DNA of 59,916 nucleotides from a virus. Shown here one piece after another: positions 20,098-59,916 of the stretch (position 1 is its first letter; each line of letters starts with the position of its first letter). A model generated the notes under the pieces. It was not told the origin of the DNA and did no database searches. It was given only the letters and a program-made list of their open reading frames with translations. Made by a program: the position numbers and the translations under genes. The stretch is from UHGV virus genome UHGV-0126570. One strand, given 5' to 3'.

Positions 20098-20271
20098 AAA
20101 TAACAAGTTGGGTAAATGCCATGCGATTTACCCTCCTTGTTGATTAAGGTCACTTTTTACTCTAAAAGCAAATCCTACCTGTTGCATATAGCCCAGCCTT
20201 GAGTAGTATCTCTCTTGTTTTACAAATCTAACGCAGTTGTTATTATTTCGCTTATTTACTATCAATGGGTG

Positions 20272-30360: not shown

Positions 30361-30431
30361 CATCCTCCACGCCCTGAAGGACGGGGTTTTACGGCGCACC
30401 GGATAAAGCCCCGGCAATGCGGGGCTTGTGA

Positions 30432-31469
30432 TTACCAGAGTTTAGCGGCGTGCTGTGTTTGGGAGAAAGTGAACCCGTAACGTTCTTCTATGGTTTTACC
30501 GTATCTTTTCCGCGCGTCTGTCAGTTTTATGCCTGTCAGGTCATCTCCGGATGTCATCATTACGTCTAACAACTCCAGATCCATTTTATTCAGTCTCGCC
30601 ATCGCTTCGCGTGCTGTCTGTATTTTACGCTCAATGATATGGCGAATAGCCGGATCGGCTTCCTCAAGCATTTTGGCTGATTTGTTCTTTAAGCTCTCAT
30701 TGCGGATGTCGATGTTTCGCAAGATGTATGACTTCGCAACATAGCTTGGTTGGTGTTTCTCCAGATCGCGAACGCGATAGAGACTAAAGTCACCAAGCAG
30801 GCCGCAAGGTATCGACTCAACCCCAGAATAAATAGTAATGCTGCGACGTTCGCCGACATTATTAACAACGGGCACTGTGGTGTTCGGAAGTTTTGCGAAC
30901 ACTAAGGCTCCGTGTGCGCCTACCCTGAATCGTGACAGAGCATTGCTGCCTTCAATGTTTGTTGTAAGCACTACATCTGTGTATCCATCTTTGCGCGCCC
31001 GGTAAACTTCCCCTTCAGGTTCTGATGCGAAAAAACGGCGCTCTTCTTCAAGTGCACCAACAATCTGCGAAAATATCTTGTTTTTCAGGCTTTTCTTTAT
31101 AATTGCATCATATTTTTTGAGCAGATTTTCGCGCGTAAATGAGCGGGTGGTGGTCGCGCTTTGCACAACAATATGCGTGCTTTGATTTGTGTCCTCGATA
31201 ATGAATGGGATCGGAGAATATACAGACTCAACAATGTTAGACGCTTTGCCGTCAGCGTTACGGCACAAGTCAACAAAGGCTTTCCATTCTGTGAGGCACT
31301 TTTCAGCTTCTTCTAGCACATTCTGATCATGTGTTAGTGCAACATGGCGGAATTCCTCGCCGGAATAACTGGTATCATGGAAAACAGAGTTTGCGACCAC
31401 CAGCTCTTTCCACCGTTCAGCGGTTTGCAGGAACCGTTTGTACTCTTTCTCGATCGACTTCTTACTCAT
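30432..31469 (-). CDS. Hypothetical protein (345 aa); candidate immunity-region regulator
   Basis: Only gene between pacB and the lox-like site, divergent from cre; three operator-like motifs lie in its upstream region (31488-31497, 31572-31582, 31666-31674). Repressor role is positional inference only. Confidence 0.3.
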   Translation of the reverse strand: MSKKSIEKEYKRFLQTAERWKELVVANSVFHDTSYSGEEFRHVALTHDQNVLEEAEKCLTEWKAFVDLCRNADGKASNIVESVYSPIPFIIEDTNQSTHIVVQSATTTRSFTRENLLKKYDAIIKKSLKNKIFSQIVGALEEERRFFASEPEGEVYRARKDGYTDVVLTTNIEGSNALSRFRVGAHGALVFAKLPNTTVPVVNNVGERRSITIYSGVESIPCGLLGDFSLYRVRDLEKHQPSYVAKSYILRNIDIRNESLKNKSAKMLEEADPAIRHIIERKIQTAREAMARLNKMDLELLDVMMTSGDDLTGIKLTDARKRYGKTIEERYGFTFSQTQHAAKLW

Positions 31470-31487
31470 TATTCCTACTCGATTTAG

Positions 31488-31497
31488 TTTTCTAACA
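31488..31497 (-). promoter_or_regulatory. Operator-like half-site (TGTTAGAAAA on minus strand)
   Basis: About 20 bp upstream of the 31469 start codon of the minus-strand gene. Confidence 0.4.
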
Positions 31498-31669
31498 TAA
31501 AATTACTATGACAAATCTATGCCGAATAACAGGGTGAGTAAAGGATCAAGATGCATTTTTTTATCATCCAATTTAGAAAATTCTGCTTAAAAACTGCCAG
31601 GCATAACTTAAAGCCCACACCAGCAATGCATTGCCCATCTGCGCGGAAAGGAAAAAAATTCCTAAATTT

Positions 31670-34963: not shown

Positions 34964-35731
34964 ATGGAAAGCACTAAAACAATTCAATACCGCTTGCGTA
35001 ATGGCCTGCTGGTGGCTGTTAACGCCGACATGTCACTGCCGTTTGACACGATTGAACGCACTATCATGACGTATCTCGGCTTTAATGAAGAGCTGAATGA
35101 AGAGCATGGCGTAGCTATATGGAGTGATGCAGACAGCGGCGTTCGTCGTTACATCACCGCCAGGGGCAAAGACTACTCTCTGGATGAACTGTTTGCCCTT
35201 GCGCAGTCTTTCGAATGTGTAGCATTAGACCTGTTTAATGATCCTGCTATAGCGCAACGACTTATACGCGAGCTTGGGCTATCCGTTACACCAATTATAT
35301 TTAAAAATGGCAGCCTGACTGGCACATGGCGCGTAGAACGCATCTCAAACTACCTTCCATATAACCGACAGTTAAATGGAGTAATCTCCGGCGTTAATCA
35401 GCCCGTAGCGTGTGAAAATGTAAACCTAGTTGTCGCTGTTTTGGCAACCGCATGTCGTGTTATCGGTTTGGCTAAACAGGCATTTATTCATTTCCCAAAT
35501 GGTGCAGAAGGTAGCGCAGAGATTATCGCGTGTGATTTCGAATTTACCTGGATGCTACGCGAATATCTGGACCAAACAGTATTCCGTGCCGAAGAACTGG
35601 ATATGTATATCACGTCAACGATTCCAGACGATGTGCGAGCTGAAGCAATCGCTACAGCCAGGGCGAAATGCCGTGCGGCGATTGCAGAACAGGCCAAAGA
35701 AGAAGTTAAGGAAGTGGCAGATGGCGACTAA
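34964..35731 (+). CDS. Hypothetical protein (255 aa), partner of the terminase paralog
   Basis: Translationally coupled to the downstream TerL-like gene; no similarity to PacA. Confidence 0.45.
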   Translation: MESTKTIQYRLRNGLLVAVNADMSLPFDTIERTIMTYLGFNEELNEEHGVAIWSDADSGVRRYITARGKDYSLDELFALAQSFECVALDLFNDPAIAQRLIRELGLSVTPIIFKNGSLTGTWRVERISNYLPYNRQLNGVISGVNQPVACENVNLVVAVLATACRVIGLAKQAFIHFPNGAEGSAEIIACDFEFTWMLREYLDQTVFRAEELDMYITSTIPDDVRAEAIATARAKCRAAIAEQAKEEVKEVADGD

Positions 35732-36815
35732 GAGCAATATTTATAAAGATCCGCGCTGGCTGTCGCTGGTGGAGAAATATAAAGACAATTGGGTACTGGC
35801 AGCAAAAGAATTGTTTGATATTGATTTAAGCCACCAGCAACAACAAATTGTTGAAGCTATACAGCCCAATAATGCAAAAGCTACTGTCACCACTCCGTAT
35901 GGGATCGGACGACCGCAAGTGCTTGCTGTTATTAGTACCCTTTATACGATTATGTATCCTGATTCCCGGACAGTAATTGTTTATCCAAAATCAAATGTTT
36001 GCAAAAGAGGAATTGTTGCATATGTGTGGCAATGTTGGGAGGCATTGCTGAAAAAACAACCTTTTATCATTGAGTATTTTAAGGTCGGTGATAGCGGTCT
36101 GATGTTCAATGAATTTTGGGGAATGTGCTTTTGTAACTACCGCCTTAACTATGAAGATAGCATTGCAGGTCACTACGCCGACCATCTTTTATTCATTATT
36201 GTGGATTCCGCACATATCAGCGATCGGGCATACAGCATTGTGTGGGCAAGCATGACTAGTGGTGATTCACGCATATTGCTCACTTCAATTCCGTCACCAG
36301 AGGAAATAGGCTTTTTTTATGATTCACATCATGGACGTGCTTTAGCTGAAGATAATCCGAGTGGTGTATATAAAGCCATTAAGCTGAGCGCGGAGGATTC
36401 ACCATTTATTACCCAAGAATATCTTGATCATTTTGCCGAAAGGTATGGCGGGCGAAATAGTGATGACTATCGTCGTATGATTCTTGGTGAGTTCCCTGGT
36501 ATTAGGGAGGCTGTTCTTGAATCAGATATGCCGAAGACAATGCGCTTTTCGATGCCTGATGGTAGTGAATGGACAATGCCATTACGAGTGATAGCCCGGC
36601 ATCATGCGCAGCACCACGCCAAAAAACATGGCGTCACGACATTAGAATGGTTGAAATCGCACACTATTCCACTCTTCACTGCAGATCACAATGCTATCGT
36701 TGAGTGGGCAAAAACAATTCCGTGGGAGCATGTCGCTGAATATGCTCACATGCTAAAACCGCCGAAAGACAGGCGCGAAATTAGCTGGCTGACAGCCGAA
36801 AAAATCATTGAATGA
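35721..36815 (+). CDS. Terminase large-subunit (PacB) N-domain paralog with degenerate Walker A/B and no nuclease domain
   Basis: Aligns with PacB residues ~10-300 (DPRW..., SHQQQ, FYDSHH, SPF, YGGR, FP), but Walker A is TTPYGIGRP instead of TSGHGTGKS and Walker B LLFIIVDSAH instead of LLLILDEAS; protein ends after ~364 aa. Confidence 0.6.
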   Translation: MATKSNIYKDPRWLSLVEKYKDNWVLAAKELFDIDLSHQQQQIVEAIQPNNAKATVTTPYGIGRPQVLAVISTLYTIMYPDSRTVIVYPKSNVCKRGIVAYVWQCWEALLKKQPFIIEYFKVGDSGLMFNEFWGMCFCNYRLNYEDSIAGHYADHLLFIIVDSAHISDRAYSIVWASMTSGDSRILLTSIPSPEEIGFFYDSHHGRALAEDNPSGVYKAIKLSAEDSPFITQEYLDHFAERYGGRNSDDYRRMILGEFPGIREAVLESDMPKTMRFSMPDGSEWTMPLRVIARHHAQHHAKKHGVTTLEWLKSHTIPLFTADHNAIVEWAKTIPWEHVAEYAHMLKPPKDRREISWLTAEKIIE

Positions 36816-36860
36816 TATCAACAAAAAGCCCGCCTGGTCTGGCGGGCTTCTTTATGCGCC

Positions 36861-37250
36861 TTAAATCACAGGTCTATAATCAAACTCCCCACTTCGGGCA
36901 TCATTAATGACATGAGTGATCACACCAAAAACAGCATTACTGCCCGTGTATCCATCGTCATCCACTGGTAACGCCTCTTTCTTCCCGGTGCTTAAATCCT
37001 CCAGGTGCTGGCGCGGATACTTCCTGTATCTCTTTATGCGATATTCACCCTCCATAGCGCATATAAGCAGTGAACCATCAACCGGAGTAAGTGAGGAATC
37101 AACCACCAGCAAAGCACCTTGCAATATTCCCTCACGGTGATGGCTGTCTGCCGCCCGCATGAAGTAGGTCGCGGAAGGATGTCTGATTAGTTGCTGATCA
37201 AGAGAAATGCGGCTCTCTGCATAATCCGCCGCAGGAGAAGGGAAGCCCAT
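36861..37250 (-). CDS. humD: UmuD/HumD-like S24 peptidase
   Basis: S24 LexA/UmuD C-terminal domain pattern (GILQGALLVVD...GEYRIKRY) in a 129-aa protein. Confidence 0.75.
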   Translation of the reverse strand: MGFPSPAADYAESRISLDQQLIRHPSATYFMRAADSHHREGILQGALLVVDSSLTPVDGSLLICAMEGEYRIKRYRKYPRQHLEDLSTGKKEALPVDDDGYTGSNAVFGVITHVINDARSGEFDYRPVI

Positions 37251-37373
37251 AGCGTTTTACCTCAATGATACTGTTTATTCATACAGTATACATTGAAAAG
37301 GCATAGTTTGTGAAAGCGGGGTTTGTAGGCGCGCCACGCTGGGGGCTAATCACATTTCTCCCCCATCTTGCCG

Positions 37374-37625
37374 TTATTTTTTTGGTGCATCCTCGTTCTG
37401 ATACACCGGATCGCTCCCTTTTGGCAACTGGAGGCTTAACTGCCGGTAGTGCCGTAGCCGTTCCATGAAATAGGTGCGCAGGTTCTCCGGCTGCTCACGG
37501 GCTACCTGTTCCGCTATGACGGGTATGTTCAATCGCTCTTTGTACGCCACACCGCTGGCAGCCAGATCAACGTTAACCTTATCCCGTTCTTCCTGACTTT
37601 TAGCTGCAATATTCCAGTCGCTCAT
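37374..37625 (-). CDS. Hypothetical small protein (83 aa)
   Basis: ORF only. Confidence 0.35.
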
Positions 37626-37627
37626 AT

Positions 37628-37900
37628 TTAAGGCTCACATTTCCAGATGGTATTCTGAACACCCGAACCGGGCGCAAGATGAGGGTTAGCGTTCGCGCTA
37701 TGCTGATATACGGCTTTAGACTTTCCATATTGCTGACAGGCTTTATCTGCGGTTTTTTGCAGGCTATCCAGGCCATACCAACCATCTGACTGGATGCTAA
37801 CCTTTTCTCCGTCATTGTATTGCACCATAGCACACCCAGACATAGCCAACATCGCACCGACAATAACGCTTTTACCTAAAAATCTACGCAACATATACAA
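37628..37900 (-). CDS. Predicted lipoprotein
   Basis: Signal peptide ending in lipobox LAMSGC; mature part ~65 aa. Confidence 0.5.
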
Positions 37901-37939
37901 AAATCCCCTCTGTGAATTGAGGGGATTTTAGCATGGTGA

Positions 37940-38698
37940 TCAGATATCGGCCTTATTCGGAATTTTATCAGCCACCAGCGGCAATAAAGCCTTCGCCATT
38001 TCATGAACCAACATGGCATCAATGACGCCTAGCGTATGGCCCGGCTTAATCTTTAATGCGGCCTCAAGATAGCCTCTTTCCAGAGTGGTTTTTACGCTTT
38101 TCTTGGGCGATTGTTGGGAACTATCCGGAAAATCCGGATGGTTGCCAGCCTCGTAAGCTACCCGCAGCCAGTGCATGAATGTTTCAGTGGACACACAACC
38201 ACAGTCCACATCGATTTTCCCGCGTTGCTGTTCCAGCCATTGCCCAAAATCCAACCTGTAAGCCTTACTTTCAAGTTCATCACCATTGAACTCGACTTGA
38301 TGCGACGCTATGAGAGCGGCTTCGTATTGTTCGTGAGTGACAACTGACTGGTATTCATCGCTATCAAGGTCATGAATTGGAAGCTCAATCTCACAACAAA
38401 AATTGCGCCCAAAGAACGTGTCTTTTTTGTGGTCTGAGCCAAAAGCAAAAGTCGCGCATGGCGCCATTAAATTGGCACTGAGCAGGCGACAATCGATCAT
38501 ACCATCAGGCCACCCGCCGCACTTAGGCAGCTCCTTCACTAACAAGTCGATAAGCTTCATTTTTTTATCATCTTTGCAAGCCGCCAAAGCCATTTGGGCA
38601 AGTGCCAATACTTCATCTGCCGTATATCCAGCACCGTGACCATACATTTCGATACGGGAAATAATATCTGAAATACGCTCTTTAGTGATTCTTGTCAT
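37940..38698 (-). CDS. Hypothetical Cys-rich protein (~252 aa)
   Basis: ORF track start 38716; the ATG at 38698 gives an ATGA overlap with the upstream stop. Confidence 0.4.
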   Translation of the reverse strand: MTRITKERISDIISRIEMYGHGAGYTADEVLALAQMALAACKDDKKMKLIDLLVKELPKCGGWPDGMIDCRLLSANLMAPCATFAFGSDHKKDTFFGRNFCCEIELPIHDLDSDEYQSVVTHEQYEAALIASHQVEFNGDELESKAYRLDFGQWLEQQRGKIDVDCGCVSTETFMHWLRVAYEAGNHPDFPDSSQQSPKKSVKTTLERGYLEAALKIKPGHTLGVIDAMLVHEMAKALLPLVADKIPNKADI

Positions 38699-38904
38699 AG
38701 TTTTATTTCCTTGCATGGTTCGCCTTTACGGCAAACAGCTACACGGTCATTTCTTACATTAACCACAGTCACCGTTCCGTCATCGCATTGAATAACGATG
38801 AAAGGGTGTTCATTCTCTTTTGTGCAATGTTGCTGTTCTCCAGCCATTGCAGCCGGAGGATCAAATAGCGCCAGAACAAATGCCAACCTTAAAAAATGCT
38901 TCAT
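38695..38904 (-). CDS. Small secreted protein
   Basis: N-terminal signal peptide MKHFLRLAFVLALFDPPAAMA; four Cys in the mature part. Confidence 0.45.
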   Translation of the reverse strand: MKHFLRLAFVLALFDPPAAMAGEQQHCTKENEHPFIVIQCDDGTVTVVNVRNDRVAVCRKGEPCKEIKL

Positions 38905-39159
38905 TTGGCCTTATCCGTTATCAAAATTGGAATATCCGTTATCACGAGCGTGATATCCGTTATGAAGTGGGGAATAAGACCACTTACCAATACCCTCCGC
39001 CTGACTCAAAGTTGGCGATAAGCCAGGCTGCGAAAAGAGTAACCCCGCTCCAAAAACCACACTCCACCGTACCCCATTTAACACCACCAGCTAATAAAAT
39101 AAATAAACCGCAAAGGCATACAAACAAAAAAGTAATCCAAAATTTCTTTCTGTTTTTCA

Positions 39160-39453
39160 TTATGGTTGACTCCAGTTATCTTCAATAACAATACTTAACC
39201 TCTGAAGCCATTCTGCTAATTTCAGCATGGCTTCTCTTTCGCTTAAACCACGCGGAAAATCATCAAGCGAAATTGTTGGCTTGAAGTTCCCCGAATTATC
39301 CATTTCAACGGTCAGATTTTGCTCCAGCACGGTATTCCTTACGCGGCTATTGTGCCGAAGCAAATATACTGAGCGTGATTTATTGGTTTTGTGGTCGAGC
39401 TGATATTCGGTAAGTATCATCTGGCTTCCACCATGATTATTACCGCGCCACAT
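39160..39453 (-). CDS. Hypothetical protein (97 aa)
   Basis: ORF only. Confidence 0.35.
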   Translation of the reverse strand: MWRGNNHGGSQMILTEYQLDHKTNKSRSVYLLRHNSRVRNTVLEQNLTVEMDNSGNFKPTISLDDFPRGLSEREAMLKLAEWLQRLSIVIEDNWSQP

Positions 39454-39465
39454 AATTACTCCGTG

Positions 39466-39870
39466 TTAATAAGAGAAATAGACCGTTGCAACACTGTTAT
39501 ATTGGTCGAACGAAATAGCATTTACTTCATAGCTGGTGGGCAGCTTCTTACCAAGAATGTAGCCAGGCCATGAGTTCCACGGAATTTCTGTTCGGTCGTC
39601 GTCTTGCCACATTACGCAACCCAGAGAGCCAACCATTTCACCATATCGCTTGCCACAAGTAACAAATCCGATATTCGGCTTTTCTTGTGTTACTGATACC
39701 GTGGTGGTATTGGCAGATGCATTGATTGCAGTACGTTGCTCATGCTCGCTGGCGGCTGAGGCGCTAATTACAGCGGTTGCCGCAGCTCCCGCAGCAATAA
39801 CCGATGCATGAGATAAATGACAGGCAGATAACATTGCCAGAAAAATAATATTTCTTTGAAATTTAGCCAT
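39466..39870 (-). CDS. Secreted protein (134 aa)
   Basis: Signal peptide MAKFQRNIIFLAMLSACHLSHA; Ala/Thr-rich linker. Confidence 0.45.
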   Translation of the reverse strand: MAKFQRNIIFLAMLSACHLSHASVIAAGAAATAVISASAASEHEQRTAINASANTTTVSVTQEKPNIGFVTCGKRYGEMVGSLGCVMWQDDDRTEIPWNSWPGYILGKKLPTSYEVNAISFDQYNSVATVYFSY

Positions 39871-40144
39871 TGATATTAACCTTTATCGCAAATACCTTAA
39901 CCGGATTCTCTCCAAAGTGCGGATGTGTGATTGTCTTGATTTCATATCCGTCATACGGGACGTCTATTCTGCGGCTGGAATCGTCGCGCTTCGGGTATCC
40001 CTTTGTGATAATCAGGCGGTCATATTCCCGGAACATAATTCGCTTATTCCAGTAGTCATTGCACAGGCGATACTCTTCCGTTTTCTCCCCGCGAATCATG
40101 GCATCGAAGTATTCACCTTTGACGGCAAGTTGCAGGTTAGCCAT
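39863..40144 (-). CDS. Hypothetical protein, possible ASCH/PUA-like fold
   Basis: MANLQLAVKGEYFDAMIRGEKTEEYR...ITHPHFG pattern; start chosen at the ATG overlapping the upstream stop. Fold assignment is tentative. Confidence 0.3.
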   Translation of the reverse strand: MANLQLAVKGEYFDAMIRGEKTEEYRLCNDYWNKRIMFREYDRLIITKGYPKRDDSSRRIDVPYDGYEIKTITHPHFGENPVKVFAIKVNING

Positions 40145-40404
40145 TACCGCACCTCCAGTCTCCATACCGCCTGACCAATCCGGCTGGCATAGGTATCTTT
40201 GGATACTGCTCCGTCTTTAGCCAGCTCCATAAGAATTTTGCGCAAATCTGCCGAACGCCATTCTTCATCAGGAAATTCCTTCTCCATTGCCAACCGCAGA
40301 TTCCAGGTTGCTATCGTGAATGGATATTCCCCGCCGAGAGCTTTCTCTTGCAGGGCAGAACGGGAACGCATCACCTGCAAAACCTTCTCTTTTACATCCA
40401 TCAT
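40144..40404 (-). CDS. Hypothetical protein (86 aa)
   Basis: ORF with ATGA coupling to neighbours. Confidence 0.35.
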   Translation of the reverse strand: MMDVKEKVLQVMRSRSALQEKALGGEYPFTIATWNLRLAMEKEFPDEEWRSADLRKILMELAKDGAVSKDTYASRIGQAVWRLEVR

Positions 40405-41057
40405 TTTGCCTCCTGCGGCGGTTCTGGTAGTGGCATCCAGTGTGTGACATTGCTAATCAGACCATATTCATTAGTTTGAGGATGGTTGCCGTTATCGTCT
40501 CCGTATTTAAGACTCTCCATAAAACCATAATGCTTATTCCCATTAACGCTCACAAAGCCGTAATAAGCTGGTATAACGCCGATCTCACACGTAATCAGCA
40601 AAGGAAAACTAGTTCTCCAATTTAGCTCGCCGATTACAGGCATTCTCTCACTACAGCTTATCCAACTATCCTGAGTTACCGGAGAGTTGCCCGATAGCTG
40701 GTTCAACTTGTAAGTTTGGCTTACAGGTTCGGCTTTCAGTTCTGCTATGCGCTTTTTTGCTGCTTCCAGCTCAACGCGCAGCTTCCCTACCGTTAGCGCA
40801 ATATCCTCGTTCTCCTGGTCGCGGAGTTTGATGTATTGCTGGTTTTTTTCCCGTTCATCCAGTAGTGCCAAAGCAACCTTTGGATTAAAGGCAGCAATAA
40901 ATTCAGCGTTGTTTTTCAGAACGTGTTGCGCAATGGCCTGACTACTTAGTCGGACCTCATAACCACGTGCGCCACGGTGTGGTTTATATGAGTCCCAGTC
41001 TCCCCACGTTGCTTTCTCTGCCGCCTCACGCAGTGCCTGGTAATTAATTTCGCTCAC
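40401..41057 (-). CDS. Ea22-like protein with C-terminal DUF551-like motif
   Basis: N-terminal MSEINYQALREAAEKAT (Ea22-type), coiled coil, C-terminal THWMPLPEPP. Confidence 0.5.
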   Translation of the reverse strand: MSEINYQALREAAEKATWGDWDSYKPHRGARGYEVRLSSQAIAQHVLKNNAEFIAAFNPKVALALLDEREKNQQYIKLRDQENEDIALTVGKLRVELEAAKKRIAELKAEPVSQTYKLNQLSGNSPVTQDSWISCSERMPVIGELNWRTSFPLLITCEIGVIPAYYGFVSVNGNKHYGFMESLKYGDDNGNHPQTNEYGLISNVTHWMPLPEPPQEAK

Positions 41058-41641
41058 TGGTTGCCTCCTTTGCGAAGCTGTTCAGCAATACTTACGCATA
41101 TCTCTGCGCCTCTAATCAGCCCCGGAACGTTCTTGTTTGGCCCAACTTCACCATCAACAAAATCAATCATCGCGTTACGAGCCATATCCACCCCCTGCGC
41201 ACGTACTTCAGCCAGGAGAGCGTCGGTAGCTGGGGTTTCCGTGAAGTTGTCCTCCCAACCGTAGTACTCCTGACGACAGAAGTTATTAAATTCCTTCTCC
41301 GACTGTTTAAGCGCCGCATTCTCCACTGCCAGCGCCGCGCACTTGGCCTCAAGAGCGGCAACCACTTCCTGATGGTCTTTGTACTTAACGTATGAGCCGG
41401 AGATGTCATCACCTTCGGTGTTTAGCCATGCGTCATTGCAATTCACTGCGTAGGTTCTGATGCTGATGCTCTCCCGCCCCTGACAGACGCCAGGCCAGTC
41501 AATAAAGTATCCGCAATGCCTACCTTCAGACGTGCGCGCAGGATAAATGCCGTTATGACCCGGCAAAATATATGCTACCCATTCATCTTGCGTTGCCTGT
41601 TCCGCCGCCTCGCGCAGTTCTTGATAGTTAATTTTGCTCAC
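41054..41641 (-). CDS. Ea22-like protein (paralog)
   Basis: N-terminal MSKINYQELREAAEQAT; C-terminal ...LLAEVRAQG...AEQLRKGGNQ shared with the 44216-44926 product. Confidence 0.5.
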   Translation of the reverse strand: MSKINYQELREAAEQATQDEWVAYILPGHNGIYPARTSEGRHCGYFIDWPGVCQGRESISIRTYAVNCNDAWLNTEGDDISGSYVKYKDHQEVVAALEAKCAALAVENAALKQSEKEFNNFCRQEYYGWEDNFTETPATDALLAEVRAQGVDMARNAMIDFVDGEVGPNKNVPGLIRGAEICVSIAEQLRKGGNQ

Positions 41642-42936: not shown

Positions 42937-42978
42937 AATGCATACCGACTCTGTTTTGTTCCGAGCGGTAAAATAATA

Positions 42979-43008
42979 TGTTAGAAAATTAAAATCAACA
43001 ATCTAACA
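42979..43008. promoter_or_regulatory. Palindromic operator-like element TGTTAGA-N16-TCTAACA
   Basis: Between the minus-strand HNH gene start (42936) and the phosphatase gene end. Confidence 0.5.
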
Positions 43009-43040
43009 CGATTTTGAGCGCGTAAACGATGTAACCCGGC

Positions 43041-52015: not shown

Positions 52016-53204
52016 TTTCCTGAAAAACCAGGACGGGCGCTATATCACTGATGGCCTGTCCTCTAAGGACTTCACGCGTTTATTCGACCTTATCAGTAAA
52101 GAACAAACCCGTAAGCGCCGACAAGCTCACCGGACGCTGACGCCCGGCAGACTGAGGAACAAATCCGCCGAAGATATTCTCAAGTTGGGGAAGAAGAAAG
52201 GCGGCACGTTCTTTACGCGAGACGATCTGAAAGGCTTCGAAAAGCTACGGAGTAAAACGCGCGAAAAATATGACAGTAAGACGGCAGGCATCACATACGC
52301 CCAGCTGGTGGCATCCAGCCAGGCTATCGATATTAAGCGTGCAAATAACGCCGTGGATGACGGATCTGGTATCAAAAGAGCTACACCCGTATCTCTTCGC
52401 CACAATGTGATTAATATCCGCGTAGAAGCATCGGATATATCCGTCCACCAGCACCATATCGTCCGTATACGCTTTGAAGAATGGGATCAGATGGTCGATG
52501 ACATCGCAGAAGACGATAAATCAGCTCTGAAAATCACTAAATCACTGTGCGCCGGGCGGGTGTCTTTCGATTGTGACTGTGGTCGTCATCAATACTGGTA
52601 TCGTTACATCGCTACTGCGGGTAACTTTGCCTTGGCCCCGCCAAAAGAATACGCCTATCCAAAAGTTCGTAACCCTAAGCTACAAGGCGTCGCCTGTAAA
52701 CACGTGATCCACTCAATGACGCGGTTACAGTCCGCCAGTTGGCAAATGAGTATTGCTCGTGCGTTACAAAAGGCCGCAACGCAAATTGCATTTGGTGACG
52801 ATCGCCGCCGTACAACTAAACACTTCTCAAAAGAAGACGAGAAGGAGTTTAATCGCAATCGTAGCAGTAAAACGAACGTTGAAGCCGCCAAACGCGAATG
52901 GAGGCTCTATCAGAAACGCCAGGCCGCTTTAAGCACAAAACTGGCAAAGGACAACGGGAAGATTGACAAGCTACGTGACCAGCTGACCAGGGCCAGAAAG
53001 TTGTCCGATGCACAGAAAAAACGGGCAGCAGCAAAAGAAGCAGCCTTGCAACGTGAGAAACAGAAAAACAAGGAGCTTCAGCAACGCCTTGCCGATCAAT
53101 TCGCACTGAAGAAGCAAGCGTTCATTGATGCACTGGTCATGGCAGGAACGTCACCTGAGCAAGCTGAAAAAATGTTTATGGAGTACGTGAAGAAAGGTTC
53201 TTGA
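52008..53204 (+). CDS. SWIM-type zinc-finger protein with basic coiled-coil C-terminus
   Basis: FDCDCGRHQYWYRY...GVACKHVIH fits the CxCxnCxH SWIM pattern; C-terminal third is Lys/Arg-rich coiled coil. Confidence 0.45.
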   Translation: MPDFLKNQDGRYITDGLSSKDFTRLFDLISKEQTRKRRQAHRTLTPGRLRNKSAEDILKLGKKKGGTFFTRDDLKGFEKLRSKTREKYDSKTAGITYAQLVASSQAIDIKRANNAVDDGSGIKRATPVSLRHNVINIRVEASDISVHQHHIVRIRFEEWDQMVDDIAEDDKSALKITKSLCAGRVSFDCDCGRHQYWYRYIATAGNFALAPPKEYAYPKVRNPKLQGVACKHVIHSMTRLQSASWQMSIARALQKAATQIAFGDDRRRTTKHFSKEDEKEFNRNRSSKTNVEAAKREWRLYQKRQAALSTKLAKDNGKIDKLRDQLTRARKLSDAQKKRAAAKEAALQREKQKNKELQQRLADQFALKKQAFIDALVMAGTSPEQAEKMFMEYVKKGS

Positions 53205-53275
53205 TTGACAACAAAGGCGGTCATACAGACCGCCAAACTCATACACCAACCAGGCTTTCAAGAGGAATGCCAAAC

Positions 53276-53635
53276 TCATACACCAACCAGGCTTTCAAGA
53301 GGAATGCCAAACTGGGAATGTAAACGACGAATCATAGGTAACGTTAAATTTCGTGTCCCATTTAGCACTTCGTAAACACGATTTGACTTACCAATCGCCG
53401 GTTCCAGATCCTTCACGGTCAGCCCTTGCTGTTCCATACGGAATTTAATGGCTTCAATAGGTGATGGTGGCTCAATTGGGTAATGCTTTTTCTCGTACTC
53501 TTCAATGAGCAGGCACATTACTTCAAAGAAATCGCCTTCCGGTGTGTTCATTTCCGGTTCGTTATCGAACATCGGTTCGACCGCACGCAGTGCGGCCTCA
53601 TAATCTTGTTCTGTACGGATAGGTTTAATGTTCAT
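53276..53635 (-). CDS. higA: HigA-family antitoxin (HTH)
   Basis: C-terminal HTH ...LTVKDLEPAIGKSNRVYEVLNGTRNLTLPMIRRLHSQFGIPLESL typical of HigA; downstream of the toxin gene. Confidence 0.75.
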   Translation of the reverse strand: MNIKPIRTEQDYEAALRAVEPMFDNEPEMNTPEGDFFEVMCLLIEEYEKKHYPIEPPSPIEAIKFRMEQQGLTVKDLEPAIGKSNRVYEVLNGTRNLTLPMIRRLHSQFGIPLESLVGV

Positions 53636-53638
53636 GAT

Positions 53639-53941
53639 TTACTCCAGTTCTATTGTATCAGCTTCAATGGCATCGTATTCCTTATGTGTTCCAATAAACT
53701 TAACGAACATCCATCCTCGCTGATAAGCAATTGCGACAATTAACCTGTAATCATTTCCCTTAATATTGAACACCACGCGCCTGTTTTTAAGGATGCTGGC
53801 TGTCCGGTACTGTTCTTTGATCTCAGCCGGATTTTTCCAGTCAGCCTTTGTTGCTTCATCAACCCATGCCTTTAATGGCTGTTCTGCATCGGGATTCTTC
53901 GCCCAGAAATCCCTTAGTGTTTTTACCGAAATTATTTTCAT
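53639..53941 (-). CDS. higB: HigB-family toxin (RelE/ParE superfamily)
   Basis: MKIISVKTLRDFWAKNPDAEQ...VVFNIKGNDYRLIVAIAY...IGTHKEYD; ORF track start 53998 trimmed to the ATG for MKIIS. Confidence 0.75.
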   Translation of the reverse strand: MKIISVKTLRDFWAKNPDAEQPLKAWVDEATKADWKNPAEIKEQYRTASILKNRRVVFNIKGNDYRLIVAIAYQRGWMFVKFIGTHKEYDAIEADTIELE

Positions 53942-56626: not shown

Positions 56627-57276
56627 AGCGTAGAGCGCAAATTGTTGGAACTGTGCACCCGGCAGGGCTTATGCGTGCTCAGGTCCGTGTTTTACCAGAC
56701 TGGAATGGCGTTCCTGATGACGATCTACCCTGGGCAGAATACCTGTTACCCATAGGTAACGCGTTTGTACCTACAGTAAAAGGCGACCTGGTATGGGTAG
56801 AGTTTCCTTATCTGGATGTTAATGGTCGAATTGATACCAGACGCCCAATGATAGTTGGCGCAGCTCAGGATGCGCCTGGCGGAGTACCAAACGTCGCGCC
56901 GGAGGCGTCAGGCAATGGTAGCGGCTGGACGCCACCAGAAGTAGACGGAGCGCCTCCCCGCCCGCAATTTTCGGCGACAAAAGATTTCGTGATTCACCGC
57001 AACAATGTGCTCGAAGTGCGAACGGCTGGCGGTGGATATGAAATAGCGAATACGGCAGCAGGCTCAAGGATTGGAATGAATGAATCAGGGCAGATATACA
57101 TCATTGGTCCGGCTGATGTAGTAGTGAATGCGGGAGGGAGTGTTAACGTCAAATCAGCCGATAACATCAGCGTTAATGGCAAAAACATTACTGTGACAGC
57201 CGACGAAAATATTGATTTCAAGGCTGGAGGCACCTTCCAGGCTATCGCAAGCAACTTTGATTTCAAGAAGGGATAG
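56623..57276 (+). CDS. Baseplate spike / gpV-like protein
   Basis: N-terminal OB-fold-like segment (IVGTVHPAGLMRAQVRVLPDWNGVP...GDLVWVEFPYLDVNGRIDTRRPMIVG) followed by a Gly/Asn-rich beta-helix-like repeat. Confidence 0.45.
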   Translation: MKRRAQIVGTVHPAGLMRAQVRVLPDWNGVPDDDLPWAEYLLPIGNAFVPTVKGDLVWVEFPYLDVNGRIDTRRPMIVGAAQDAPGGVPNVAPEASGNGSGWTPPEVDGAPPRPQFSATKDFVIHRNNVLEVRTAGGGYEIANTAAGSRIGMNESGQIYIIGPADVVVNAGGSVNVKSADNISVNGKNITVTADENIDFKAGGTFQAIASNFDFKKG

Positions 57277-57285
57277 AAAACACAT

Positions 57286-57329
57286 CCAATTGTGTTAGAT
57301 AATTGAATAGAATTTTCTAACACAATTGG
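57286..57329. promoter_or_regulatory. Extended palindromic operator-like element CCAATTGTGTTAGA-N16-TCTAACACAATTGG
   Basis: Near-perfect 14-bp inverted arms, 7 bp upstream of the rdgC start codon. Confidence 0.55.
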
Positions 57330-57335
57330 TGAAAC

Positions 57336-58241
57336 ATGAGATCAGTCGCTTTCAAAAACATCTTCATCTATCGTCTTTCACGTGAAGTTAACTGGAGTGC
57401 CGCAGAAGTATCCGATGCTCTTAGCAAATTCGTGTTTACTCCTTGCGGTTCTCAGGACACAGCTAAAGTCGGTTGGACACCTGTTCTTGGTGACAACCTC
57501 ACCCATGAATACCAGGGTTTTCTGCTAATACAGCATAAGCGAGAAGAAAAAATTCTCCCCTCGCAGGTGCTCAAGGAAGAGTTGCAGAAAAAAGTCCTGA
57601 AACTCGAAGAAGAGCAAGCCCGCAAGCTGAAGAAAACGGAAAGAGACAGTCTTAAAGATGAAGTCCTGCATTCACTTTTGCCTCGCGCGTTCACGAGAAA
57701 ATCACTCGCCAAAATCCTGATCGACCGCAGCAACCATCTGGTATTCGTTGAGGCAAGCAGCGCCAAAAAGGCAGAGGACCAGCTGGCTTTATTGCGAAAG
57801 TCGCTCGGCAGCCTGCCTGTCATTCCATTCACACCACGCGAACCGCTGGAAATTACAATGACCGAGTGGTTTAAAAGCGGCTTCCCTGCCGGATTTACAG
57901 CAGGTGAAGACGCCACATTAAAGGGTCTGCTCGATAATGGTGGTGCCGTTCGCTGCAACAAAGTTGATCTACAGTCCGACGAGATTATGTCTCACATTGA
58001 GGCGGGGAAAGTAGCTACGACCGTTGCAATTAACTGGATGGACCGTGCGTCGTTCAGAGTCAACGATGATATGAGTATCAAAGCCCTGACATTCTGTGAT
58101 GATCTCTATGACCAGAACGACGATATCGACCGGGAGGATGTAGCACAACGATTTGATGCTGATTTCGTGCTCTTTACGGGCGAATTATCTGCACTGTTTA
58201 ACGCGCTGGTGGAGGCCATTGGCGGTGAAGCAGAACGATAA
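57336..58241 (+). CDS. rdgC: Recombination-associated protein RdgC
   Basis: Alignable along its length with E. coli RdgC ([54 protein letters not shown]). Confidence 0.85.
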
Positions 58242-58257
58242 TAACCGACCGCTTGTT

Positions 58258-58905
58258 GTGAGTCTTTGTGATTTTACGGGGGCAATGGTTGCCCCCTGGC
58301 TGGAATACGGTGTCGATGCCGCTATCGTCGATCCACAGCACTTATCGACCAGTGACGAGCGGATGCAATCAGGTGCCGTTCTGACGCGTATTAGTGCGAT
58401 CATCGATAGCGATGAAGTATACGCTTTTCTCCGTAAGAATTTGCAGCGCATCGTGTTTCTGGCCGGGTTCCCACCGTGTACTGACCTGGCTGTTTCCGGC
58501 GCGCGCTGGTTTTCGGACAAGGCTAATAAAGATCCGGTTTTCCAGTTCAAAGCAATGCAGGTTGTCTGGCAGTGTTATGACATTGCAAAGATGATCGGTT
58601 GTCCGTACATGATTGAAAATCCGGTCAGCAAAATATCGACATTCTGGCGTAAGCCAGATCACATCTTTCACCCTTACTTCTTCACTGCATATTGTCAGGA
58701 AGATAACTACACCAAAAAAACATGCCTCTGGAGCGGCCAGGGCTTTGTCATGCCTGATGCCCTAATGGACGAATCATTAGGCAAGCCAGATAACAGAATC
58801 CATGCCGCGCCACCAGGGCCTGACAGGGCTAATTTCCGAAGTGCTACTCCACATGGATTCGCAAAGGCAGTTTTCGAAGCGAATAAGGGGGTGCTCTATG
58901 AGTAA
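58258..58905 (+). CDS. Minimal C5-cytosine methyltransferase-like protein (motifs I, IV, VI only)
   Basis: LCDFTGAM (motif I-like), GFPPCTDLAVSG (PC motif IV), IENP (motif VI-like) with canonical spacing; no recognisable target-recognition domain. Start uncertain (GTG 58258, ATG 58285, or ATG 58153 inside rdgC). Confidence 0.4.
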   Translation: MSLCDFTGAMVAPWLEYGVDAAIVDPQHLSTSDERMQSGAVLTRISAIIDSDEVYAFLRKNLQRIVFLAGFPPCTDLAVSGARWFSDKANKDPVFQFKAMQVVWQCYDIAKMIGCPYMIENPVSKISTFWRKPDHIFHPYFFTAYCQEDNYTKKTCLWSGQGFVMPDALMDESLGKPDNRIHAAPPGPDRANFRSATPHGFAKAVFEANKGVLYE

Positions 58906-59803
58906 ATCTATAGCAAGCATAGCCATAGAAAAACAGGATACGATGGCTGAAATTAGCTATATGCGCACCATTCGGACTCCGGATGAATATGAGCGTCCGA
59001 TATTCAAATGGGTAGGTGGTAAATTCTCAGAATTGCCTACAGTGCTTGAGCATCTACCACACGGTAAGCGGTTAATAGAACCATTCGTTGGTGGCGGTTC
59101 CGTATTTACGAATGCAGGATTTCGCCACAACCTGCTTAATGATATTAACGGTGACCTGATTAACTTCTATCAGACATTGCAGCGAGAAGGACATTCGCTC
59201 GTCACGCTGTCATATAGTTTTTTCAAAAATTACAACAACGCTGACGCTTACCTCGAAGTGCGTGAGGCATTTAACAGAGGAAAATATGACCAGCTACATC
59301 ATGCTGCCGCATTTTTGTACCTTAATCGTCACTGTTTTAATGGCGTAACGCGGTACAACCAAAATGGCGAGTTCAACGTGGGGTATGGCAAATACAAAGC
59401 GCCCTACTTCCCACATGCAGAGATGGAGGCATTTTTGGCTGATGACGTACTCAAAAACACTTCCTTTGTATCAGGAGACTTTGCTAGCGTCATCGAGGCG
59501 GCTGGTGAAGACGATGTGATTTTTTGTGATCCGCCGTATGAACCGCTTCCGGATACAGAGGGATTTACCAGCTATTCAGGAAATAGCTTCCGTTTCGATG
59601 AACAAAAACGGCTTGTATCACTGTTGGTGGATGCCCACCAGCGCGGCGCTAAGGTAGTGATAACAAATAGTGGTGCTCCAAACATCCGTGAGCTATATGA
59701 AGGAAACGGGTTTAAAGTACATCATATGGCAGCCAGACGGTCGGTTTCCTGCAAGGCGTCAACACGTGTAGTTGCTAACGATATAATTGCAATAATGAAG
59801 TAA
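58898..59803 (+). CDS. dam: Dam-family N6-adenine DNA methyltransferase
   Basis: FKWVGGK, EPFVGGGSVF, FLYLNR, CDPPYEPL in the order found in E. coli Dam; start overlaps the upstream stop; GGGGG RBS. Confidence 0.85.
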   Translation: MSKSIASIAIEKQDTMAEISYMRTIRTPDEYERPIFKWVGGKFSELPTVLEHLPHGKRLIEPFVGGGSVFTNAGFRHNLLNDINGDLINFYQTLQREGHSLVTLSYSFFKNYNNADAYLEVREAFNRGKYDQLHHAAAFLYLNRHCFNGVTRYNQNGEFNVGYGKYKAPYFPHAEMEAFLADDVLKNTSFVSGDFASVIEAAGEDDVIFCDPPYEPLPDTEGFTSYSGNSFRFDEQKRLVSLLVDAHQRGAKVVITNSGAPNIRELYEGNGFKVHHMAARRSVSCKASTRVVANDIIAIMK

Positions 59804-59805
59804 AA

Positions 59806-59833
59806 AACGCCGCAGTAGCGGCGTTTACTTTTT
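59806..59833 (+). terminator. Rho-independent terminator
   Basis: AACGCCGC-agta-GCGGCGTT followed by a T-rich tract directly after the dam stop. Confidence 0.65.
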
Positions 59834-59916
59834 CATGTGGCGAAATACCTATTAACCTAACTTCGCCCAGGTATCACGCAGCCCAACGGTGCGGTTAAAT
59901 ACCGGTTTTTCCGCCG

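Follow-up and report, generated by a model that had tools for sequence, protein, structure and literature searches.

How would a protein of about 220 residues, with almost no recognition domain, pick out the cytosines that it is to methylate? The question applies to a whole family of phage proteins, one member of which lies near the end of the viral genome UHGV-0126570, a stretch of 59,916 nucleotides that is here called the window. Three genes follow one another there on the + strand behind a palindrome: a homolog of rdgC (hrdC in phage P1), a small open reading frame referred to as ORF64, and dam. The original prediction had described them as an operon of rdgC, a minimal C5-cytosine-methyltransferase-like gene and dam behind a palindromic operator; that description is supported, and the palindrome can be further specified as what appear to be two inverted C1-type operator sites. 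What, then, is this operon for, and is its middle gene an enzyme? We think it likely that the three genes form a repressor-controlled DNA-modification operon of a D6-like prophage, in which ORF64 is a self-sufficient small C5-cytosine methyltransferase (C5-MTase). This reading is built on the fold, the conservation and the homology of ORF64; methyl transfer, a target sequence and the binding of a repressor are the parts that we infer. The features concerned are the following.

57274-57303, + strand: sigma-70-like promoter candidate, with -35 TAGAAA at 57274-57279, an 18-nt spacer and -10 GATAAT at 57298-57303; 9/12 consensus matches
57286-57329, no strand: palindrome with 19-nt arms (57286-57304 and 57311-57329, 95% complementary), one T.T mismatch and a 6-nt loop
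57289-57305, + strand: left copy of the putative C1-type operator, ATTGTGTTAGATAATTG, found by motif enrichment; 11/17 match to the P1 consensus
57310-57326, - strand: right, inverted copy of the putative C1-type operator, reading ATTGTGTTAGAAAATTC on the - strand, found by motif enrichment; 11/17 match to the P1 consensus
57336-58241, + strand: rdgC/hrdC homolog, 301 aa; Pfam RdgC at E 5e-103 over the full length, and NCBIfam RdgC; D6_65 is described as 'similar to P1 gene hrdC'
58225-58905, + strand: ORF64, minimal C5-cytosine-MTase-like protein, 226 aa from GTG 58225
58898-59803, + strand: stand-alone Dam, a D12-class N6-adenine methyltransferase, 301 aa; PF02086 at E 7e-57 and TIGR00571 at E 1e-74
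59805-59826, no strand: bidirectional intrinsic-terminator-like hairpin separating dam from the convergent glnS; 9-bp stem, 6 GC pairs, T runs on both strands

The profile matches confirm the RdgC homolog and the Dam methyltransferase at the places where they had been predicted, and the Dam translation contains both FVGGGS, a loop of the FxGxG type for binding S-adenosylmethionine (SAM), and DPPY. Over the 2.7 kb around the operon, identity is 96.1% with Escherichia phage D6 (MF356679) and 100% with E. coli plasmids of ~90 kb, for example pLD93-1-90kb, and the window can be assigned to a D6-like, P1-family plasmid prophage (phage-plasmid) of E. coli. In phage D6 the same locus is orf65-orf64-orf63, with identical gene order, overlaps and GTG start, and the D6 ORF64 protein is 99.6% identical to that of the window. 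The D6 record calls orf65 a 'recombination associated protein of RdgC family, similar to P1 hrdC', orf64 (D6_64) a 'putative DNA-cytosine methylase' and orf63 a 'site-specific DNA-adenine methylase, similar to C-terminal half of P1 dmt only'. The locus is already published and annotated there, and as a locus it is nothing unusual: the complete rdgC-orf64-dam operon occurs in 89 of 5,426 complete E. coli genomes, and none of the 17 D6-like viral loci departs from this gene order, not even one whose proteins are 48, 64 and 44% identical to those of the window.

The first thing to settle about ORF64 is where it begins. Alignment with 24, and then with 53, homologs reveals a conserved N-terminal strand and an LCDxTG motif upstream of ATG 58285; the homologs begin 4-12 residues before SLCD, and a 64%-identical relative (L026) has an ATG eight codons before SLCD, behind GGAGG. 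To judge from these alignments the best start is GTG 58225, the only suitable one in the window and also the choice of the D6 annotators. It gives a protein of 226 aa, longer than the ~215 aa first estimated, and it was absent from the three starts that had been put forward (GTG 58258, ATG 58285 and ATG 58153), none of which is the best. GTG 58258 leaves one residue before SLCD. ATG 58285 is the start used by the NCBI Prokaryotic Genome Annotation Pipeline (PGAP; NZ_CP047663.1), which calls the product a 'hypothetical protein' at 58285-58905; it comes 20 codons late and removes the LCDxTG motif of the SAM loop together with strand beta-1. As for the third, the codon at 58153 is TTG and the ATG stands at 58156; a start at either would add 23-24 residues found in no homolog.

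Within the 226 residues the motifs are LCDFTG at 14-19, Asp36, FPPC at 82-85, ENPV at 131-134, YTKKT at 162-166 and RSATP at 205-209. C5-MTase motifs I, IV and VI had been claimed for the protein. Motif IV (FPPC) and motif VI (ENPV) are clear, and motif I is degenerate, since LCDFTG keeps only the last Gly of FxGxG. The canonical forms of motif I (F-x-G-x-G), motif VIII (Q-x-R-x-R) and motif X (G-N-(A/S)-V) are replaced in ORF64 by C-D-F-T-G, Y-T-K-K-T and R-S-A-T-P. A canonical target-recognition domain occupies at least ~80 aa between motifs VIII and IX; ORF64 has only ~35 residues (172-204) between the TCLWSG strand and RSATP, modelled with a predicted local distance difference test score (pLDDT) of ~70, which agrees with the earlier remark that no such domain is evident.

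Can a protein so reduced be linked to the C5-MTases at all? ORF64 matches PHROG 757, 'DNA methyltransferase', at E 3.4e-78, and it is without a hit in Pfam (PF00145 even at E <= 10), NCBIfam or PADLOC. Nor does PF00145 hit any of 54 family members, or a relative from the Drexlerviridae, at E <= 10, while the N-terminus of P1 Dmt hits it at E 1.6e-35 in the same search that missed ORF64. Against the PDB sequences, phmmer and hmmsearch with two family profiles gave no significant match to C5-MTases; the best hit of the broad family profile was DNMT2 at a non-significant E of 0.46, in register from motif I to PPC (motifs I-IV). The two family alignments compared by hhalign with an alignment of the P1 Dmt N-terminus reached a probability of 0.1-0.2, which is a weak test because the diversity of the template alignment is very low (Neff 1.3).

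The structure gives a different answer. The AlphaFold model of ORF64 is a confident one, with a pLDDT of 85.8 and a predicted template-modelling score of 0.86. In it FPPC follows strand 76-81 and precedes a disordered catalytic loop (86-93), ENPV stands at the end of strand 128-132, and residues 210-224 form a C-terminal helix, so that the Pro-Cys of motif IV comes after beta-4 and motif VI after beta-5; the order of strands and helices is that of the C5-MTase topology. The 16 best PDB hits in Foldseek are all C5 DNA methyltransferases, and the fold hits in BFVD are small phage 'DNA-cytosine methylases'. The modelled protein thus shows the C5-MTase fold. Profile searches had been named as the check on whether the middle gene is related to methyltransferases: the searches with profiles and hidden Markov models (HMMs) give no link to C5-MTases, and the link comes instead from the comparison of folds and from homology to a studied phage Dcm.

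Conservation adds a second line of evidence. Across 101 representatives that are only 33-50% identical to ORF64, seven residues never vary, namely D36, C85, E131, P133, K164, T166 and W169; by their positions four of them would be the acid that binds the SAM ribose (D36, at the end of beta-2), the nucleophile (C85), the glutamate of motif VI (E131) and the basic residue of motif VIII (K164). The family is very large, with >7,900 clusters at 90% identity, nearly all of 200-260 aa, and 2,633 representatives at 50% identity (E <= 1e-3); by tblastn, 1,580 out of 50,697 phage records contain it, or ~3% of sequenced phage genomes. Comparison with D6-like variants gives ORF64 ratios of nonsynonymous to synonymous substitution rates (dN/dS) of 0.10, 0.08 and 0.06, by which measure it is under purifying selection. 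Two homologs are instructive in their architecture. In one of 548 aa (P0341), the catalytic Cys of the PPC motif is the exact insertion point of a Hint/LAGLIDADG intein (GFPP, intein, CTNLSVSG). In another of 563 aa (P0241), an ORF64-like domain is naturally fused to a D12 Dam, which gives the architecture of P1 Dmt with a minimal cytosine-methyltransferase module. In the branch to which the D6 type belongs, motif I is reduced to C-D-x-T-G and a ~35-aa insert, PD(N/D)RIH..PPG..RAN.RS, is almost invariant. Several lines point to an active enzyme, and ORF64 appears to be an intact member of a very large minimal phage 'Dcm-like' family, not a decaying or regulatory remnant.

What such a protein can do is known from a relative. 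ORF64 is 37% identical over its full length (residues 8-220, E 1e-41) to the 'Dcm-like C5 cytosine methyltransferase' of the Drexlerviridae phage FritzSarasin, a protein of 236 aa whose gene length (711 bp) and whose C82, E128, K175 and K176 agree with what is reported of the phage K42 Dcm. Loss of dcm lets phage K42 (KarlJaspers type) escape from retron Ec86, and expression of K42 Dcm raised 5-methylcytosine (5mC) in multicopy single-stranded DNA (msDNA), as seen by liquid chromatography coupled to mass spectrometry (LC-MS), and activated the retron, which a C82A/E128A/K175A/K176A mutant did not (bioRxiv 10.1101/2023.08.16.553469). The protein acted when expressed alone from a plasmid, and its CCWGG target was assumed from the host Dcm and backed only by msDNA mutants, not mapped (bioRxiv 10.1101/2023.08.16.553469). 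The residues mutated in the inactive K42 variant align with C85, E131, K164 and K165 of ORF64, and both are small stand-alone proteins of the same family, PHROG 757. The two differ in other respects. The K42 type has a canonical F-D-G-S-G SAM loop where ORF64 has C-D-F-T-G; K42 is a lytic phage, and its gene context is not that of ORF64. The ~35-45-aa segment before RS.TP, which in ORF64 reads PDNRIHAAPPGPDRANF, is unrelated in sequence to that of the K42 type, so that specificity may differ; because this possible DNA-recognition segment differs, the specificity of K42 Dcm is not transferred to ORF64.

How is the operon read? The GTG of ORF64 lies 17 nt inside rdgC, with GGAGG ahead of it, and the ATG of dam lies 8 nt inside ORF64, with GGGGG ahead. 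A scan of the region found no terminator-like site separating the operon genes: of five terminator-like matches (3.1 +/- 1.4 in shuffles), the lone internal one, at 58726-58742, is weak and falls within ORF64. The co-transcription of rdgC, ORF64 and dam that had been proposed is plausible in view of the overlapping stop and start codons, the lack of a separating terminator and the closing hairpin at 59805-59826.

Upstream of the three genes, the palindrome exceeds in length every other inverted repeat of >=95% complementarity in the window, longer repeats reaching only 73-82%, and in this sense the earlier statement that it is the strongest palindrome of the window holds. It consists of two inverted copies of a 16-17-nt motif, ATTGTGTTAGAWAATT, with centres 21-22 bp apart and a 6-nt gap. 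A first operator search, with the 14-nt outer half-site TCTAACACAATTGG, found nothing above chance in the window, and the repeated motif emerged only with the inner 16 nt of each arm as the query. With <=3 mismatches, ATTGTGTTAGAWAATT then occurs 12 times in the window, against 1.21 +/- 1.06 copies expected from dinucleotide-preserving shuffles and a shuffle maximum of 4. The ten copies outside the palindrome lie at these positions:

9166, 10364, 20268, 21310, 22717, 27009, 31486, 42975, 42997 and 46403: 16-nt sites of the form nnTRTGTTAGAAAAYT

BLAST mapping onto the annotated D6 genome puts them mostly in non-coding DNA adjoining homologs of P1 genes that C1 controls, most clearly at repL, the c4/icd region and pmgR. 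Four of them stand upstream of a gene, at a distance of 170-185 bp for the repL homolog, 75-90 bp for lpa, 17-32 bp for c1 and 67-82 bp for ref. Others lie between repL and the icd/antirepressor (icd/ant) module, in the interval from pmgR to pmgS and downstream of pmgS; the copy at 20268 falls just within the annotated start of pmgM, at the 5' end of the pmgM homolog. Between ppp and the pdcB homolog, the sites at 42975-42990 and 42997-43012 are again inverted relative to each other, with a gap of 6 nt as in the pair at rdgC, and this second pair is a poor palindrome. The P1 record has C1 operators at c4/icd, kilA-repL and pmgR and next to ppp, and in P1 C1 also controls lpa, c1 and ref. Together the ten further copies look like the C1 regulon of the element.

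The palindrome itself can be read in the same way. In the P1 record the operator Odmt (Op68) adjoins the -35 of Pdmt, ahead of uhr-hrdC-dmt, and because P1 has a C1 operator ahead of its own hrdC-dmt operon, the palindrome is taken to be a putative bivalent C1-type operator. By this analogy it would be a double, inverted C1-type operator to which the repressor binds. The P1 consensus extracted from the record is ATTGCTCTAATAAATTT, also written ATTGCTCTAATAAATtT, and that of the window is atTgTGTTAGAAAATTAA; the candidate -10, GATAAT, sits within the left copy. Comparison of the window palindrome with its counterparts in other D6-like elements (L001, L011, L014, L020, L023, L025 and L027) gives eight distinct variants, in which the operator cores are invariant and the loop is freely variable. 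The T.T mismatch that gives the left arm its GATAAT is the one conserved mismatch, kept in 8/8 variants.

The resemblance to P1 extends to the genes. P1 Dmt (754 aa) joins a canonical C5-MTase domain (PF00145) to a D12 Dam in one protein, and the Dam of the window is 69% identical to its Dam half (residues 478-753). In both uhr-hrdC-dmt and the operon of the window, an hrdC homolog precedes the methylases, a cytosine-methyltransferase module stands directly upstream of Dam, and a C1-type operator, putative in the window, lies at the promoter. P1 differs in having an extra gene, uhr, and a single operator; that of the window is double and palindromic, and its core sequence is different. Between ORF64 and the C5 half of P1 Dmt no similarity is detectable either (BLASTP E 2.9, besides the hhalign result above with its low-diversity template), and ORF64 is best described as a non-orthologous cytosine-methyltransferase module in the slot upstream of Dam that the N-terminal half of P1 Dmt occupies. 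The catalytic domains of DNMT3A and DNMT3B, which are eukaryotic, larger than ORF64 (~280 aa) and work as oligomers, share 10-15% identity with it, with no homology detectable at the level of sequence.

Put together, these features suggest an early or repressor-controlled DNA-modification operon that would work as follows. In the lysogen, the C1-type repressor would occupy both 17-bp operators and so cover the -10 and the transcription start of the sigma-70 promoter. On induction or infection, one mRNA would be made up to the terminator at 59805-59826, and the overlapping stop and start codons, which are seen directly in the sequence, would couple its translation. Its products would be the DNA-binding protein RdgC/HrdC, ORF64 and a Dam methylase of GATC. 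ORF64 would transfer methyl groups from SAM to cytosine C5, with Cys85 of FPPC as the nucleophile, Glu131 of ENPV protonating the cytosine, and Lys164 and Lys165 in place of the arginines of motif VIII. Both methylases would most likely mark the replicating phage DNA and protect it from restriction in the next host, and Dam might serve packaging in addition, as in P1.

A number of observations weigh against this picture. The SAM loop of ORF64 is degenerate, motifs VIII and X are replaced, and no HMM or profile method, be it Pfam, NCBIfam, PADLOC, the PDB searches with phmmer and hmmsearch or hhalign, ties the protein to PF00145. The studied relative is only 37% identical, its putative recognition insert is a different one, and CCWGG is an assumed target even there. 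Repressor binding, promoter and transcript ends are predictions only: the match at 57274-57303 is weak by itself, and 2 promoter-like sites were found where 4.3 are expected in shuffles. Lastly, the mirrored substitutions in the arms of the palindrome could point to the function of a hairpin instead.

Could ORF64, to begin with, be something other than an enzyme? The original prediction had allowed for a non-catalytic regulator and for a decaying gene, and a DNA-binding or regulatory remnant would fit the lack of a Pfam or NCBIfam hit, the degenerate SAM loop and the 'hypothetical' PGAP model from ATG 58285, from which motif I is removed. Decay is contradicted by a dN/dS of 0.06-0.10 and by the >7,900 clusters of the same small size, with their 2,633 representatives at 50% identity, and loss of catalysis by the invariance of Cys85, Glu131, Lys164 and Asp36 in the 101 distant representatives, by the intein placed at the catalytic Cys of a homolog and by the published 5mC activity of the related phage Dcm; the idea is largely refuted, and hardly any weight is left to it. 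A third suggestion was that the protein needs a partner for target recognition; unable to recognize DNA alone, it would be targeted by Dam or RdgC, which share its operon. The triad conserved in D6-like elements and the natural ORF64-Dam fusion speak in favour of this, as do the RdgC genes near the homolog in two of four distant bacterial genomes (Agrobacterium and Kushneria; in Photorhabdus the homolog lies in a lysis cassette, and in Pseudomonas it has no partner). The wider context contradicts it. Among 63 more distant viral loci the homolog is without Dam in all and has RdgC within 5 kb in one, so that 62 have neither gene at that distance; a search of these loci for a conserved partner gene found none, no neighbour family being present in more than 11 of the 63. 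The Drexlerviridae and Pseudomonas homologs adjoin neither Dam nor RdgC, and K42 Dcm was active by itself. Because the distant loci show no recurring partner, the ORF64 protein is regarded as a stand-alone unit, and dependence on a partner as very improbable. Somewhat less improbable, and still doubtful, is that ORF64 acts at cytosine C5 but not as an ordinary methylase of defined sequence specificity: the group that it transfers might be a different one (such as carboxymethyl from carboxy-SAM, which E. coli makes), its specificity might be very short or relaxed, or it might prefer single-stranded or structured DNA. A phage enzyme of the first kind exists in CmoX, a DNA cytosine C5-carboxymethyltransferase of 333 aa with an SPPC motif, an Arg that exactly replaces the Asn of motif X, and cmoA and cmoY adjacent (PMC12783734; PDB 8yf3). 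ORF64 differs from it on each count, having FPPC, Ser206 at the Asn position by motif spacing with Arg205 one residue earlier, and only rdgC and dam in its operon besides, and the K42 relative, which shares R-S-x-T-P, is reported to give 5mC by LC-MS.

The palindrome raises a rival of its own, namely that it is mainly a nucleic-acid hairpin, for example a stem that forms in RNA reading through from the tail genes upstream and hides the ribosome-binding site of rdgC, or a processing site. The folding energy of the RNA is -23.3 kcal/mol (z = -5.6 relative to shuffles; there is no U tract), the 3' end of the stem overlaps a GGTGA Shine-Dalgarno-like sequence, and no terminator lies between gene 5 and rdgC. 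Among the eight variants, four of the outer base pairs have changed in a mirrored, compensatory way on the two arms, with a covariation score reached by 0/500 shuffles and about three lineages sampled; between the window and D6, there is one mirrored difference in the arms (CCAATTG versus CCATTTG), and the loop differs as well. Candidate explanations of such mirrored substitutions are the function of a hairpin, symmetric recognition by a protein and homogenization by template switching, a process by which quasi-palindromes are made more perfect and which tells against the hairpin. So do several other facts: what is conserved coincides exactly with the operator core, of which the window has ten more copies in single sites that are not palindromic; the second pair, at 42975-43012, keeps the spacing and is a poor palindrome; the T.T mismatch is conserved, not repaired; and the independent lineages sampled are about three. 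A palindrome that is mainly a hairpin is in our view unlikely, and the two functions are not mutually exclusive.

If ORF64 is the self-sufficient small C5-MTase that we take it to be, one may go a step further and ask whether the D6-type branch is the smallest self-sufficient enzyme to modify cytosine C5 in DNA, with a DNA recognition unlike that of the classical target-recognition domain (a very short or degenerate site, DNA that is single-stranded or structured, or the use of another cofactor than SAM). This is a tentative thought, to which we give only a modest chance of being right. Another consequence concerns defence systems: a relative of ORF64 triggers retron Ec86/Eco1, and D6-like prophages may be sensed likewise. 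The family also exposes a gap in annotation, for it is common and yet without a model in Pfam, NCBIfam or PADLOC. It is because of this gap that the NCBI pipeline makes ORF64 hypothetical and 20 codons too short and Dam a pseudogene; the latter flag, 'missing N-terminus' on a Dam model at 58964-59803 in the same PGAP record, is placed on an intact gene and is probably an artefact, as the best references are probably fused P1-type Dmt proteins.

The remainder of the element holds some observations of its own. The c1 repressor region (window 30403-31580) is 84% identical to that of D6, with flanks at 93-98%, and this divergence suggests a diverged immunity allele. From ~35700 to 41620 the window has little or no similarity to D6 except for a humD-like segment. 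This stretch contains two Ead/Ea22-like genes (40401-41057 and 41054-41641, both on the - strand), a Peptidase_S24 (HumD-like) gene (36861-37250, - strand) and several open reading frames without a Pfam match, including one of 461 aa at 35430-36815. A RelE/HigA-type toxin-antitoxin cassette (~52960-53925, - strand) is inserted amid the tail and baseplate genes; one of its two HigA-like genes is a truncated pseudogene in the 100%-identical plasmid record, and both are intact in D6.

On the far side of the terminator, the last nucleotides of the window (59830-59916, - strand) are the 3' end of a full-length phage-plasmid glnS, for glutaminyl-tRNA synthetase, which is convergent with dam and runs past the window end. 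The gene is D6_62 in phage D6 and is called glnS by PGAP in pLD93-1-90kb. Its short stretch in the window matches 5,338 of 5,426 E. coli genomes, mostly at 95-100% identity, and because of these matches glnS looks like a recent capture of a host gene.

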